A DNA stretch of 47,223 nt from an archaeon (GTDB lineage: Archaea; Aenigmatarchaeota; Aenigmatarchaeia; Aenigmatarchaeales; DATDXV01): NCBI GenBank assembly GCA_035289205.1, contig DATDXV010000008.1, positions 1 through 47,223 on the forward strand, in the 5' to 3' direction. The stretch's first letter is position 1; every line of letters starts with the position of its first letter. The translations under genes and the position numbers were made by a program. The notes under the pieces were generated by a model. It was not told the origin of the DNA. It was given only the letters and a program-made list of their open reading frames with translations, and did not search any database. Shown one piece after another: positions 468-6,995 of the stretch.

Positions 468-584
468 TGGTGTCGCGGGTGAGATTTGAACTCACGACCC
501 CCAGATCTCTCATCGCACATGCGTGCTAGACACTCATATTTGTGAATATGAGTCTGGTGCTCTACCAGGCTGAGCCACCGCGAC
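468..584 (-). tRNA. tRNA-Met or Ile2 (anticodon CAT) with one 40-nt intron
   Basis: Cloverleaf GTCGCGG-TG-GCTC-AGCCTGGTA-GAGC-A-CCAGA-CTCATA[intron 507..546]A-TCTGG-GGGTC-GTGAG-TTCAAAT-CTCAC-CCGCGAC-A-CCA. The intron is at 37/38 with BHB central helix CTCA/TGAG and 3' bulge AG|A. CCA is encoded. G1-C72 argues against an initiator tRNA. Confidence 0.9.
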
Positions 585-1306: not shown

Positions 1307-1427
1307 TGGCGGGCCCAGTGGGATTCGAACCCACGGCTTGCAGCTGACTTCGCTCTCATAGCTTTCGCTCGATTCTTTTAAGACAAGCTTAAAAGGCTGC
1401 CACTCTACCAGGCTGAGTTATGGGCCC
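1307..1427 (-). tRNA. tRNA-Lys (anticodon TTT) with one 44-nt intron
   Basis: GGGCCCA-TA-ACTC-AGCCTGGTA-GAGT-G-GCAGC-CTTTTA[intron 1346..1389]A-GCTGC-AAGCC-GTGGG-TTCGAAT-CCCAC-TGGGCCC-G-CCA. BHB central helix CTTT/GAAG, 3' bulge TC|A. CCA is encoded. Confidence 0.9.
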
Positions 1428-1974: not shown

Positions 1975-2643
1975 TTATAGATCTAGTAGCTTTAATTTTT
2001 CATGTACACCTTCTCTAATTCTATTTTTCTTATGAACTATTCTTATATGGGGTAAGATGCAATTTTTAATAAAAAGCACGTTTTTTCTAGAAATACAGAA
2101 CTCTGTTTCATGCCATCTCCCTTCAACTATTCTTCCATCTCTGAAAACAGATATTCCATATCTTTTGGTAACAGATACACCACATTTCATGAATTTCTCA
2201 ATAATGCTTATTAATTTCTTATTTTTCTTGTCATCTGTTATCCTTATAACATATTGGGGAGATTGCATTCTTTTGATTCTTACATCTCCGTCTCCATCTA
2301 TTACTCCTGCTAGATAAGCGCCAAAATTTGCTTCATAATTAGATACCCAAGCAGGAATTCCTGTTTTTGCTATACCCTCTTTTCCAAACCTTTTAAGTAA
2401 CTTATTCACAGACGTATGTATGTCAATTGTTCCATCTCTTAGAGTATGTATGGTTAAATCTCTACCGTATACTTCCCTTAGTGTTTTTCGGAACTCTTTT
2501 AACATCGGTATTGATTTGATACCAACATGTACTCCTATGTCTGTTCTTTTATAGATTTTATTTCTTTTCATAGTATTGTAAGTAGTTAGCTTTCCGTCGG
2601 TTTGTAGCACGCCTAAGAAATATGCTAATCTTTGATAATCCAT
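1975..2643 (-). CDS. LAGLIDADG homing endonuclease, double-motif, free-standing
   Basis: 222 aa with two LAGLIDADG motifs: LAYFLGVLQTDGKL near the N-terminus and FGAYLAGVIDGDGDV mid-protein. Visibly more A+T-rich than its neighbours. Not embedded in a recognisable intron or intein. Confidence 0.8.
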   Translation of the reverse strand: MDYQRLAYFLGVLQTDGKLTTYNTMKRNKIYKRTDIGVHVGIKSIPMLKEFRKTLREVYGRDLTIHTLRDGTIDIHTSVNKLLKRFGKEGIAKTGIPAWVSNYEANFGAYLAGVIDGDGDVRIKRMQSPQYVIRITDDKKNKKLISIIEKFMKCGVSVTKRYGISVFRDGRIVEGRWHETEFCISRKNVLFIKNCILPHIRIVHKKNRIREGVHEKLKLLDL

Positions 2644-3570: not shown

Positions 3571-3933
3571 TCAGCTGTTGACATATTTCCATCCTGGCAT
3601 CTCTTTTGCAGAAAATGCTTTAGGTCCCCTCCAAGGAGCGCTTTTAGGAGGACTCTGCAAAGCCTTCTTGACAAAGCTTAGCATCTCCTTATAGTTCTTC
3701 GGGTTCCAGAAACCGCGATAAGACATAGACCACACAGGCAGTTTCTTGAACCATACAATTTCCAAGCCCTGGAACGGTTCCCCTCCAACATACTGATCAA
3801 CGTATGTCCAGTCTCCTTTGTTGATTACTATGGTCTTAAGCCCTGGTCTGGGAGCAGATTCTTTTGCATCCCTGTCTGCCCAGCCTTCAATAGAATTAAG
3901 AAACTTTAGCAAGTCCTTGACTGTAAAAGACAT
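3571..3933 (-). CDS. hypothetical protein, DUF5680-like (start corrected to MSFTVKD)
   Basis: The track ORF 3571..4029 runs into the 5S rRNA gene. The ATG at 3933 lies about 26 nt downstream of TTTTTAAT (3955..3962). The conserved-looking core DWTYVDQYVGGEPFQGLEIVWFKKLPVWSMSYRG resembles DUF5680 from memory. Confidence 0.5.
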   Translation of the reverse strand: MSFTVKDLLKFLNSIEGWADRDAKESAPRPGLKTIVINKGDWTYVDQYVGGEPFQGLEIVWFKKLPVWSMSYRGFWNPKNYKEMLSFVKKALQSPPKSAPWRGPKAFSAKEMPGWKYVNS

Positions 3934-3957
3934 AAGAAACATTGGTTTAGTATAATT

Positions 3958-3964
3958 AAAAAGG
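3958..3964 (-). terminator. oligo-T terminator after 5S rRNA
   Basis: The sense strand reads CC-TTTTT immediately after the 3' strand of 5S helix I. Confidence 0.55.
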
Positions 3965-4114
3965 TGTCTCCAGCGTCCTGATCTTCCCGTCTTTTCGACA
4001 GTACAAACCAGATCGATGCGCCGATTCACTTCCGTGTTCGTTCCACGTCAATAGCTATTAAAACCACAGACCGAATGGGAACGGGTCTTACCGAGCGCTC
4101 TTTGACCGGAGACA
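3965..4114 (-). rRNA. rrf: 5S rRNA gene (150 nt) containing a 32-nt BHB intron; mature about 118 nt
   Basis: The sense strand begins UGUCUCCGGUCAAAGAGCGCUCGGUAAGACCCGUUCCCAUUC, then the intron, then CGAACACGGAAGUGAAUCGGCGCAUCGAUCUGGUUUGUACUGUCGAAAAGACGGGAAGAUCAGGACGCUGGAGACA. Helix I is 9 bp (UGUCUCCGG/CUGGAGACA). After splicing, loop C reads CCCAUUCCGAAC followed by GGAAGUGAA. GUACUG and CGGGAAG elements are present. A TATA box sits at -26 and a T5 run follows the 3' end. Confidence 0.85.
4041..4072 (-). other. BHB intron inside 5S rRNA loop C (32 nt)
   Basis: Canonical hBHBh'. Outer helix GUUC/GAAC, central helix CCAU/GUGG, bulges UC|G and AA|C on opposite strands, inner helix GUC/GAC. Cleavage after the 2nd bulge nucleotide joins ...CCCAUUC to CGAAC.... 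Confidence 0.8.
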
Positions 4115-4137
4115 TTTATTATCATAACTGCAATCTA

Positions 4138-4143
4138 TTTAAA
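4138..4143 (-). promoter_or_regulatory. TATA box (TTTAAA) for 5S rRNA
   Basis: Centre lies 26-27 nt upstream of the first nucleotide of helix I (4114). It lies between the tRNA-Tyr 3' end and the 5S gene. Confidence 0.65.
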
Positions 4144-4149
4144 GATAAT

Positions 4150-4300
4150 TGGTCCCCGCTGGGTGATTTGAACACCCGACCTATCGGTGATTGCGGAGCG
4201 TTGCTAAATGATAAACACTAAGCGTGCTCATCTACAGCCGATCGCTCTACCAGTCTTTTAGCTACAGACTCCCACTAGAGTCTATAAGAGCTAAGCGGGG
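4150..4300 (-). tRNA. tRNA-Tyr (anticodon GTA) with two introns
   Basis: CCCCGCT-TA-GCTC[intron 4257..4287, 31 nt at 13/14]AGACTGGTA-GAGC-G-ATCGG-CTGTAG[intron 4189..4231, 43 nt at 37/38]A-CCGAT-AGGTC-GGGTG-TTCAAAT-CACCC-AGCGGGG-A-CCA. C1-G72 is typical of archaeal tRNA-Tyr. Intron 1 is a perfect BHB (central TAGC/GCTA, 9-bp inner helix). Intron 2 is relaxed. Confidence 0.9.
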
Positions 4301-4337: not shown

Positions 4338-5726
4338 TTACCTTGAGACCTTTACCCTTATGGTGTTCTCCCCCTGGGGTCCATAGAGAACAACAATGTT
4401 AGAATGCCTGGAAATAGCAAGCGTCCCCTCCCTTCCTCTTACCTCGCTCTTCGGCAAATGAAGATCTCCGACAATATCAGCAACAACCTTTACGTTGTAA
4501 TGCAGCACTCTTGTCTCGTGTTTGCCCATCTTTCCAACCCTCCATACGAGCTCAGTTCCATGATTCAGCTTTCTTATTGTAGGCTTGAGCGTTCCGAACT
4601 TCCCTGTCAGCGCAAACTGCGATGGTACAATGTCCTTGACAATGACAGAGTCCCTGTCCCTTGCCCTGTTTGCAACCGTTATTGACATTGACACCTCATC
4701 GCCCTTCCTCAGCTCGTGCTTGTTTGCATGCTTCGTTACAAGCAGCGCTGTATAGTTGAGATACCATACGATCCCCCCCGCGATTATTGCAATAAGCAAG
4801 AATGAATAGAGCAAATTCAGTTCGGAGTATCTGATTTCTGCAGCTTCTCCAGGTGAGAGACCCACGCTCCATACCGCTTCCCTTCCGCTAAGGCTTGTTG
4901 GATCAGGGCCGGAGTAAAGCACAAGCGGGTTCTTTGATATAATGGATTTCAGCTGCGCGTCTGCCTCAACATTACCTGTGTTCTTTGCGCTCAAAACAAC
5001 AAAATCAGCCAGTATTATGGAAGATACCTTTTTGTCATAATCAAACTCCTCTATCCTGGGTATCGTGAATAATTTCGTGTCCTCATATATTACCTTTCCG
5101 CTTGCATCCGCAACCTGCACAAGCAGGGAATAATCCGCGGGCTTGACGCCTGCCAGGTCAAAGCTCTGGGAGAACTCCTTCGTGTCAAAGGGCTGCATCT
5201 CGCCATATGCAAGAGTTTTCCCATCAATGCCTATGGAGAGCTTAAGGATTGTGTTTACATTTCTCGTCCCGACATTCTCCACAGTGCCGCCCACAGTGAT
5301 CTCGTTCAGGCATGTTATGCAGCTGACAGAAAGGTTTGTCACAATGACGGATGTGACCTGCAGGATGTTGGCAGCGAACTGCGTTTTGGCAACAGCGCCG
5401 TCGCTTGACCTTGTTATGGAGAAGTCATAATTATACACGCCGGGCCTGGCGTCCTTTCCAGGCAGGAAGGACACTTTGGGTGTTGCAATCTGCCCCTGCG
5501 CAACCTTTACAGCGCTTGAGTCTATTGTGATCCAGGCAGAGGGAACCCCAACCGCGGAGATGGAGAACCAGTCCTCCTTTCCTGCATTGGTTATCTTCAT
5601 ATCAAGCGTGTAGCTCCTTCCCGCAAGGAACTCCTTCGCCCCCTCAACGGAGATAGAAAAGTCTGCAGCAGCTACGGGCTGGATAACGAGCAAGAGCGGT
5701 ATTAGTAATAGCAGATACTTTTTCAT
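4338..5726 (-). CDS. secreted/membrane-anchored protein with beta-rich repeat (CARDB/DUF11-like) domains
   Basis: N-terminal signal peptide MKKYLLLLIPLLLVIQPVAAA. One TM segment (LLYSFLLIAIIAGGIVWYL) about 130 aa before the C-terminus. No enzymatic motif. Confidence 0.6.
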   Translation of the reverse strand: MKKYLLLLIPLLLVIQPVAAADFSISVEGAKEFLAGRSYTLDMKITNAGKEDWFSISAVGVPSAWITIDSSAVKVAQGQIATPKVSFLPGKDARPGVYNYDFSITRSSDGAVAKTQFAANILQVTSVIVTNLSVSCITCLNEITVGGTVENVGTRNVNTILKLSIGIDGKTLAYGEMQPFDTKEFSQSFDLAGVKPADYSLLVQVADASGKVIYEDTKLFTIPRIEEFDYDKKVSSIILADFVVLSAKNTGNVEADAQLKSIISKNPLVLYSGPDPTSLSGREAVWSVGLSPGEAAEIRYSELNLLYSFLLIAIIAGGIVWYLNYTALLVTKHANKHELRKGDEVSMSITVANRARDRDSVIVKDIVPSQFALTGKFGTLKPTIRKLNHGTELVWRVGKMGKHETRVLHYNVKVVADIVGDLHLPKSEVRGREGTLAISRHSNIVVLYGPQGENTIRVKVSR

Positions 5727-5768
5727 GTTATCTTCTTTATTTTAAGAAGAGCTGGCTTATATACTTTC

Positions 5769-6995
5769 CTATAAGACTTTGCCCCATCCGATAAGATGCC
5801 ATCTCTCCCCGTACTTCCTGGAAAGCACGATCTTCTCCCCTTTCCCTATGCATATGGGTATTCTTAGGTCAAACGAAACAACGCCCTTCTTAAAGCCTGT
5901 TGCTGTCCCGACAGTCTTCGCTATCCCTGCGTTCAAAAGAAGCAGTTCCCCGTTCTTGACGCTCTCTATTCTCTGCTCTCCAATCTTGTCAAAAAGAGTT
6001 ATTTGGGCGCTTAGGGAGTTCAAAACAGGCGGCAGTTCCCTTCCTGCAAGGTTTCCTCCTATGGAATCAGCTTTTGTGTTGGAGGGGTCCAGCGTTGTTT
6101 TGATGCCAAGCAGCCCTCCCGGTCCTGCTTCATCAAGATCCTTTCCAGCCTTCTGTATTCCAATAACCTTTGTTTTGAGGGGAACGGTCTTGCTTCCGAT
6201 CCTGATGCCGGGCCTTATTTCTATTTCATCATTGATCTTAAGCATGCCCTGGACAAGCGATCCGCCCAGGATCCCCCCGTTCATCCCCTCAGGCTCTGTC
6301 CCGGGCCTGTTTATGTCAAATGATCTTAGAACCATTAACCTGGCAGAAAGACTGGGATCCCTCTTTGGCGTTTTTATGATTTCTTCTATCGCCTCCAGCA
6401 GCTTGTCTATATTTACCCCCTGCTTTGATGACACAGGGACTATAGGAGCATTTTCAGCAACGCTTCCCTTAAGGAACTCTTTTATCTGCCTGTAATTATT
6501 CAATGCCTGCTCCTTTGCAACAAGGTCTACCTTTGTCTGCGCTATGACGATGTTCTTTATCCCGACTATGTCTAAAACCTTTAGGTGCTCCCTTGTCTGC
6601 GTCTGGGGGCATTCCTGGTTCGCAGCTATCACAAACAGGACCCCGTCCATCAGGGCTGCGCCGGAGATGACTGTTGCCATTAATGTTTCGTGCCCCGGGG
6701 CGTCAACAAACGAAACAGTTCTTACAGCTTCGCACTTCTCGAAGTCCTTCTTGCATTTCTCTGTCAAGGACAAACTAGAGCATTTTGTGCATTTGTAGAT
6801 AGTTGCGTCAGCATATCCTATCTTTATTGTAATGCCCCTCTTCAATTCTTCGGAGTGCTGCATCGGCATTTTTCCCGTTATTGCCTGGACTAAAGTGGAT
6901 TTTCCGTGGTCAACGTTTTCGGTCAGACAAAAAGAATTTGTCTAATGTCCGAGCGTCCCTATATTGACCTCTGGAATCAGTCTGGGGTCAGTCAT
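5769..6995 (-). CDS. eif2g: translation initiation factor aIF2 gamma, interrupted by a 30-nt intron (exons 6947..6995 and 5769..6916)
   Basis: Exon 1 encodes MTDPRLIPEVNIGTLG(H). Exon 2 continues (H)VDHGKSTLVQAITGKMPMQHSEELKRGITI...DAPGHE...TKVDL.... The spliced length is 1197 nt, or 398 aa. The track ORF 5769..6869 begins at an internal Met and lacks the P-loop. Confidence 0.85.
6917..6946 (-). other. 30-nt BHB intron in the aIF2-gamma coding sequence (contains an in-frame TAG)
   Basis: Sense AUUAGACAAAUUCUUUUUGUCUGACCGAAA. Central helix UCGG/CCGA (4 WC bp), bulges AC|A and AA|A, inner 9-bp helix UUAGACAAA/UUUGUCUGA with loop UUCUU, outer helix GACG/CGUU. Excision gives CUC GGA CAC GUU GAC CAC GGA AAA = LGHVDHGK. 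Confidence 0.75.

Follow-up and report, generated by a model that had tools for sequence, protein, structure and literature searches.

BHB introns are known in archaea from tRNA, from 16S and 23S rRNA and from a few mRNAs. Those of archaeal tRNA adopt an hBHBh' structure, in which two 3-nt bulges flank a 4-bp central helix formed by exon 1 and the 3' end of the intron, with a further hairpin inside the intron; they measure tens of nucleotides and are without an ORF. [quoted passage not shown] These introns interrupt highly conserved functional regions of the large rRNAs, where cutting by EndA is expected, are usually hundreds of nucleotides long and often carry homing-endonuclease ORFs. The archaeal cbf5 pre-mRNA of Crenarchaeota also contains a BHB intron, and EndA-type splicing thus acts on non-tRNA substrates. 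As for 5S rRNA itself, that of Halococcus morrhuae bears a 108-nt insertion which is retained in the mature rRNA.

The locus described here lies in the window (the whole stretch of DNA that was analysed, 47,223 nt) and comprises a 5S rRNA gene whose loop C is split by 32 nucleotides. It shares with archaeal tRNA introns the hBHBh' geometry, the short length and the lack of an ORF, and canonical tRNA examples occur in the same window (tRNA-Met and tRNA-Lys); the host, however, is loop C of 5S rRNA rather than an anticodon loop or another tRNA position. With the 16S and 23S introns it has in common a BHB in an rRNA precursor, an expected cut by EndA and a highly conserved functional site, but the 5S introns reported below span only 19-76 nt and contain no ORF. 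As in H. morrhuae, an archaeal 5S gene is lengthened by an internal insertion; that insertion, in contrast, lies elsewhere in the molecule, stays in the ribosome and has no BHB frame, whereas the one in the window splits loop C and carries a conserved splice motif. The cbf5 intron finds its parallel in a second insert of the window, in the gene for aIF2-gamma, although cbf5 is a different host gene from a different lineage and is not a structural RNA. The predicted mechanism is that of the known archaeal BHB introns and it is the host RNA that is new.

The first-pass annotation, made from the sequence alone, was aware of no described intron in 5S rRNA, and our literature searches likewise found none. 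No paper among approximately 8.3 million full texts (an incomplete coverage of the literature) contained "intron in 5S" or "5S rRNA intron" in any phrasing, and combining 5S rRNA with BHB, splicing endonuclease, DPANN or the phyla concerned returned nothing relevant. A 2021 review of archaeal ribosome biogenesis leaves 5S introns unmentioned (PMC8339473), the archaeal rRNA introns described by Nawrocki et al. 2018 are confined to LSU and SSU genes (PMC6125680), and a survey of the insertion-rich CPR bacteria reported no 5S gene with an insertion of at least 100 bp (PMC11270868).

A cmscan of the whole window identified 3965..4113 of the minus strand as 5S rRNA (Rfam RF00001), with an alignment spanning model positions 1-120 of 120 at 47.9 bits (E 5.3e-07), above the gathering threshold of 38. 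This alignment was anomalous in one place only: 33 nucleotides that separate CCCAUUC from GAAC in loop C were left unaligned. In the gene, the continuous 7-nt loop C (CCCAUNCCGAAC context, closed by helix III) is broken by 32-33 extra nucleotides and is obtained only after the predicted excision. The fold of the RNA, in which position i corresponds to 4115 minus the window coordinate, preserves helices I, II and IV/V, and the terminal helix runs from U1-A150 to G9-C142 (10 bp in the MFE fold). The TATA-like box is centred approximately 25-26 nt upstream of the 5' end of the gene (4114), A/T boxes of a similar kind precede related 5S genes, and CC followed by TTTTT (3958..3964) abuts the 3' end. 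A 150-nt minus-strand 5S gene with a 9-bp terminal helix, a TATA-like box and a trailing CC-TTTTT had been proposed in the first-pass annotation, and each of these elements was recovered. It had also dismissed roughly the first 30 codons of an ORF that overlaps the gene (152 aa, GTG start). The independent gene call of a 99.7% identical contig begins the same CDS at an ATG equivalent to 3933 (120 aa, DUF5680); hence the first 32 codons of the ORF are spurious. The window derives from a Rifle-aquifer population: contigs 99.6-99.8% identical to it are present in ENA and JGI samples, those of ANAN16/SAMN03842431 and JGI 3300002502 being 99.7-99.8% identical, and the sequence of the 5S gene is identical in an independent assembly.

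Table 1. Positions of the 5S rRNA gene, its predicted intron and other features of the window.
Feature	Coordinates	Strand	Basis
5S rRNA gene; 150-nt precursor, predicted mature RNA 118 nt	3965..4114	-	RF00001 and fold
Exon 1, RNA 1-42, ends ...CCCGUUCCCAUUC	4073..4114	-	BHB scan
Predicted BHB intron, RNA 43-74, 32 nt, GGUCUGUGGUUUUAAUAGCUAUUGACGUGGAA, no ORF	4041..4072	-	Rfam insert, strict hBHBh', best profile score on excision
Exon 2, RNA 75-150, begins CGAACACGGAAGUGAA...	3965..4040	-	Rfam alignment and BHB scan
hBHBh' motif, RNA 33-79	4036..4082	-	Strict scanner and BHB-enforced fold
TATA-like box TTTAAATA	4136..4143	-	Read from sequence, consensus match only
T5 run straight after the gene, likely archaeal terminator	3958..3962	-	Read from sequence
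ORF overlapping the 5S gene	3571..4029		
tRNA-Met(CAU); canonical hBHBh' intron 507..546, 40 nt, position 37/38	471..584	-	BHB scan
tRNA-Lys(UUU); canonical hBHBh' intron 1346..1389, 44 nt, position 37/38	1310..1427	-	BHB scan
tRNA-Tyr(GUA); introns 4258..4286 (29 nt, D-loop) and 4189..4231 (43 nt, anticodon loop)	4150..4300	-	Hand analysis
Free-standing 222-aa ORF	1975..2643	-	
aIF2-gamma gene (approximate)	5769..6995	-	
In-frame insert in the aIF2-gamma gene, 30 nt	6917..6946	-	

The extra nucleotides of loop C were searched with a strict BHB scanner demanding a 4-bp central helix, two 3-nt bulges and outer and inner helices of at least 2 bp each. A full hBHBh' motif was found, with its two 3-nt bulges on opposite strands, the 4-bp helix between them and helices on either flank. 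The outer helix is G33UUC36/G76AAC79 (4 bp), the central helix C37CAU40/G69UGG72 (4 bp, one of them G-U) and the inner helix G44UC46/G66AC68 (3 bp), beyond which a further stem of 6 bp follows; the 5' bulge reads U41 C42|G43 and the 3' bulge A73 A74|C75. This is exactly the structure that had been worked out from the letters in the first pass (GUUC/GAAC, CCAU/GUGG, UC|G, AA|C and GUC/GAC). If each bulge is cut behind its second nucleotide, RNA 43-74 is removed and CCCAUUC|CGAAC is joined in an RNA of 118 nt, in agreement with the earlier expectation of a normal loop C and a product of about that length. The predicted spliced loop C has 7 nt and fits the consensus CCCAUCCCGAAC. Two other candidates in helix III and loop C passed the scanner, one of them weaker (63 nt) and one situated inside the intron. 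Inspection of the 32 nt by eye revealed neither a C/D box nor any other known motif.

The unconstrained MFE fold (-55.1 kcal/mol) uses a rival 6-bp register, while the fold with the BHB enforced lies 3 kcal/mol above it (-52.1 kcal/mol) and retains the three-way junction of 5S rRNA. When the 32 nt were shuffled 100,000 times, a strict BHB of any kind excising exactly 32 nt arose in 1.1% of the shuffles, and one that equals the observed motif in quality in 0.2%. At this single locus the shuffle test is suggestive rather than decisive; overall, the motif is far beyond chance because it recurs in 24 further distinct sequences.

The first-pass annotation had suggested scoring the gene with and without its insert. 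For this purpose a profile HMM built from 35 distinct intron-less relatives was used in place of RF00001 on the spliced RNA. The BHB-spliced RNA of the window scored 69.8 bits and the unspliced RNA 51.9 bits, a gain of 18 bits. Sixteen other 32-nt excisions, shifted by -8 to +8, scored between 43.6 and 67.6 bits. Excision in the predicted register thus restores an uninterrupted host RNA of 118 nt, and does so best of the 17 registers.

Natural alleles exhibit the same behaviour in Rfam, where intron-less genes score 9-16 bits above their intron-bearing near-twins: 69.6 bits for L063 against 60.3 bits for L090, 56.4 and 54.5 bits for L057 and L078 against 40.1 bits for L068 and L081, and 52.6 bits for L099 against 39.3 bits for L059. 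Intron-bearing 5S genes reach 39-60 bits with the cut-off at 38, and the gene of L116, with an insert of 62 nt, is unreported by Rfam at E <= 0.01.

Relatives were sought in 185,579 species genomes using a pattern that demands 20-50 nt between CCCGNNCYCAT and CGAACNCGGAAGNNAA. The scan returned 48 loci, 17 of which are archaeal 5S genes and about 31 of which are not archaeal 5S introns. The 17 archaeal species genomes contain loop-C inserts of 19-48 nt (21-50 nt between the pattern anchors) and are, going by the titles of their records, Nanoarchaeia, Nanoarchaeota, Woesearchaeota, Aenigmatarchaeota, Hadarchaeota and several unclassified or oddly binned MAGs. The hBHBh' is strictly canonical in nine and departs from the canonical form in the others by one mismatched flanking pair or one unpaired position of the central helix; in all 17, excision restores C[CU]CAU|NNCGAAC. 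The comparison with 5S genes of related genomes that had been proposed at the outset hence reveals the same motif in loop C across several phyla.

The remaining loci of the genome scan were rejected as archaeal 5S introns. Approximately 22 are 5S loci of the Thermus/Deinococcota type, which matched the pattern because their helix I contains CCCGTGCCCAT. Three from Firmicutes/Clostridiales (L018, L024 and L031) are duplicated or N-containing stretches, and the sequence surrounding L010, L030 and L049 is unlike a 5S gene, L050 being similar. Real loop-C inserts of 40-41 nt were seen in three bacterial 5S loci, from Sporotomaculum syntrophicum (L005) and an Aminicenantes MAG (L015/L020). These genes apparently have further insertions downstream, no BHB is present, and the inserts are probably a different kind of intervening sequence.

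A metagenome scan was performed with exon-2 sequence only and was consequently blind to the insert. It returned 66 loci: 51 with normal spacing, 12 with an insert and three that could not be classed, such that 12 of the 63 classed genes are interrupted. All 12 inserts follow the 5' strand of helix III and precede the GAAC of exon 2, ten of them at a common loop-C site. Together, the two scans provided 24 distinct loop-C inserts of 19-76 nt from Nanoarchaeota/Woesearchaeota, Aenigmatarchaeota, Hadarchaeota and unclassified archaea. Both boundaries of the window's predicted intron are displaced 2 nt downstream relative to the common site. Neither scan revealed a second intron at the exact site of the window (+2 nt) among the relatives, and no 5S closely related to that of the window was recovered, whether interrupted there or not. 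A third site is occupied in L116 (Ga0180433_10000383; L116:2589-2622 region), where a BHB frames the 62-nt insert (..UUUUCGAA|CACGG; also given as ..CCCUUUUCGAA|CACGG) and the excision product equals the sequence of the intron-less relatives L057 and L078. We conclude from these sequence comparisons that introns in loop C of 5S rRNA form a widespread class, to which the intron predicted in the window belongs as a variant shifted in position by +2 nt.

Other departures from the usual 5S structure were also observed. The gene at L103:3221-3359 (53.3 bits) has a 17-nt insert in the 5' strand of helix III (CCCGUAC[AGGCUAACGCCGCGGAG]CCAUUCC), around which no convincing BHB was found. The loop-D tetraloop is replaced by extra hairpins of approximately 52 nt in L059, L099 and L110 (after GGUACUGGC) and approximately 36 nt in L070 (after GUACUGAGA), independently of the loop-C intron. 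No conserved BHB surrounds these loop-D insertions: L099 offers a single weak candidate and L070 none, and they are not called introns here.

At the common site, the strands of the central helix are fixed by exon homology alone, as the 4 nt after CCCGN and positions -9 to -6 before GAAC, and a structure-guided alignment was therefore unnecessary. In the 24 distinct sequences (inserts of 19-76 nt), 93 of 96 central-helix positions are paired, as are 93 of 96 in the first four pairs of the inner helix. When the 3' partner was slid by 1-3 nt as a control, pairing dropped to between 22 and 79 of 96. The third central pair displays compensatory changes (C-G in 18 sequences, U-A in five and U-G in one), pairs of the inner helix vary among A-U, U-A, C-G, G-C and G-U, and the first outer pair is A-U in five and G-C in five while being mismatched in CCCGU lineages. 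Conservation of the inserts is limited to the ends that form the motif; their length and interior are free. Judged on these sequences, conserved ends around a free interior are what is predicted of an intron, and not of a functional expansion segment. The motif is thus kept among homologues of the class, with the window's own site 2 nt away.

Presence and absence of the insert follow the predicted splice sites. L099 differs from L059 and L110 by a clean 47-nt indel exactly at these sites (CCCAU|...|UUCGAAC versus CCCAUCUCGAAC), in flanks that are nearly identical: the upstream sequence is the same, including the promoter region, and the downstream sequence contains a few substitutions. Genes of L057/L078 and L068/L081 likewise differ by presence and absence at the common site. 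All of the presence/absence and covariation evidence comes from this common site, 2 nt from that of the window.

BHB introns are abundant in the surroundings of the 5S gene. All three tRNA genes of the window are interrupted: tRNA-Met and tRNA-Lys by canonical introns and tRNA-Tyr by two, which indicates a host that uses BHB splicing. ARAGORN returned no tRNAs from the unspliced window because all three genes bear introns, but called tRNA-Tyr(gta) on the doubly spliced product of 79 nt; this gene was also missed by Rfam at the gathering score. The introns of tRNA-Met and tRNA-Lys are unusually long, and tRNA matches spanning 133-184 nt in L099:366-549, L057:412-565 and L068:3202-3334 point to long tRNA introns throughout the group of the related contigs.

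The gene encoding aIF2-gamma contains an in-frame insert of 30 nt with a TAG stop inside, which splits the P-loop GH|VDHGK. It folds as a relaxed BHB-like structure with a central UCGG/CCGA helix, a 3' bulge AA|A and an inner hairpin of 7 bp. The strict scanner found neither this insert nor the tRNA-Tyr introns, and their relaxed motifs were worked out by hand. Orthologues in L044, L075 and L068 are without the 30 nt, and the protein minus the insert aligns free of gaps to solved structures of aIF2-gamma, including that of Pyrococcus abyssi (1kk0, E 5e-136). On this comparison, an essential protein-coding gene is probably interrupted here by a BHB-type intron, whose removal would leave the mRNA junction CUCGGAC|ACGUUGAC. 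As aIF2-gamma works only if the insert is removed, it constitutes independent evidence for BHB-type splicing of non-tRNA substrates in this organism.

The window is archaeal, and its Pfam content includes aIF5B, Trm1, KsgA, diphthamide synthase, GGGP synthase and ribosomal protein S6e. The order of 5S rRNA, a 462-aa secreted or membrane (surface) protein and aIF2-gamma (window 4338..6995) is common to the Aenigmatarchaeota-like contigs L017, L044, L065, L068, L075 and L108, and aIF2-gamma is about 53-58% identical to that of Aenigmatarchaeota-like loci (L017, L044, L068 and L075). The shared gene order and identity place the organism near an Aenigmatarchaeota-like DPANN lineage. No EndA or RtcB gene was present among the 20 window ORFs scanned against Pfam. 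Close to the intron-bearing RNA genes, the 222-aa ORF contains a LAGLIDADG-like motif (LAGVIDGDGDV) with no Pfam match and may represent a degenerate homing endonuclease.

We consider splicing of a BHB intron from pre-5S rRNA by EndA and an RtcB-type ligase to be the best explanation of the locus, with a probability of roughly 0.8. A 150-nt pre-5S rRNA would be transcribed on its own from the TATA-like box and end at the T-run. In this precursor, CCAU on the 5' side of loop C would pair with GUGG at the 3' end of the insert, forming the 4-bp central helix, and loop C would stay masked by this pairing until excision. The two 3-nt bulges are the predicted targets of EndA, the archaeal tRNA-splicing endonuclease, which would cut each of them behind its second nucleotide (UC|G and AA|C). 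The ligase would then join the exons at CCCAUUC|CGAACACGG to yield a 118-nt 5S rRNA with a normal loop C (CCCAUUCCGAAC), and would also close the 32-nt intron into a circle with the expected junction ..ACGUGGAA|GGUCUGUGG.. (..GUGGAA|GGUCUG..). Cleavage, ligation and the circular intron are modelled on established knowledge of BHB splicing. The central proposal of the first-pass annotation, that a BHB intron interrupts loop C of a 5S rRNA which is normal in other respects, is supported by the profile score, the recurrence of the motif across phyla, covariation, presence and absence at the common site and the wealth of BHB introns in this genome. Weighing on the other side are the 3 kcal/mol by which the MFE fold favours the 6-bp register, a shuffle test of no more than moderate strength for this locus, the lack of a relative with an intron at the exact site, the absence of EndA and RtcB genes from the window, and the occurrence of stable insertions in mature 5S rRNA elsewhere, as in H. 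morrhuae.

An alternative would be that the 32 nt form a stable expansion hairpin which is kept in the mature 5S rRNA, comparable with the insertion of H. morrhuae, and that the BHB-like geometry is incidental. Indeed, the unspliced gene scores above the Rfam threshold with the insert handled as a loop insertion, and the insert folds as a hairpin protruding from loop C. Related 5S genes additionally tolerate loop-D insertions without a conserved BHB (L059, L099 and L110) or without any (L070), and loop-C insertions do occur in bacterial 5S genes (L005 and L015). An expansion segment, however, would not require a pair of 3-nt bulges spaced by exactly 4 bp, and this geometry is maintained, with compensatory changes, in 24 sequences of freely varying interior and length; moreover, it is the most conserved loop of 5S rRNA that the insert interrupts and engages in base pairing, and precise excision of the insert restores the consensus in every case. 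We therefore regard a retained expansion as unlikely.

Two further explanations fare less well than the expansion. EndA might cut the precursor while the exons remain unligated, leaving a fragmented 5S rRNA of two pieces (42 + 76 nt). The motif evidence is the same as for splicing, and exons 1 and 2 would stay paired via helices I, II and III; conversely, the exact consensus length and sequence of the loop after excision would matter little in an open loop and, to our knowledge, all archaeal BHB systems described so far couple the cut to ligation by RtcB. This makes a two-piece 5S very improbable. Least credible of all is a pseudogene, a 5S copy in decay or without function whose BHB-like fold arose by chance, with the working gene elsewhere in the genome. 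Such a second copy could lie beyond the 47 kb of genome that are visible, and the single-locus shuffle test leaves 0.2-1.1% to chance. The gene nevertheless has its full length and every helix, lies between a promoter-like box and a terminator, and is identical in an independent assembly; its exons fit the profile of its relatives at 69.8 bits, the motif recurs across phyla, and a single rRNA set is the rule in 203 of 208 complete Nanobdellota genomes (bioRxiv 10.64898/2026.05.13.725050).

Splicing of pre-5S rRNA, as favoured here, has consequences for annotation. Since intron-bearing 5S genes score near or below the Rfam threshold (that of L116 going unfound), such genes are missed or called as ORFs, as occurred in the window. 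DPANN and Hadarchaeota MAGs would then fail the "5S present" criterion for high-quality drafts. A 2026 preprint noted complete Nanobdellota genomes without a 5S detectable by cmsearch (bioRxiv 10.64898/2026.05.13.725050), a deficit that introns of the kind described here could explain.

If the reading is correct, the third ribosomal RNA joins the hosts of archaeal introns and, as far as the literature was searched, this would be the first intron reported in the 5S rRNA gene of any organism. We lean, by a narrow margin of confidence, towards a broader view: that 5S rRNA, to which no domain of life has so far been considered to add introns, hosts widespread short BHB introns at no fewer than three nearby sites in loop C across DPANN and Hadarchaeota; that EndA-type splicing also reaches essential protein genes (the P-loop of aIF2-gamma) and is hence obligatory for both the ribosome and a core initiation factor; and that standard annotation and MAG criteria undercount 5S. 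Pairing with the intron would keep the universally conserved loop C masked up to the moment of excision, so that maturation of 5S rRNA, and with it the assembly of the large subunit, would depend on the tRNA-splicing machinery in these lineages.
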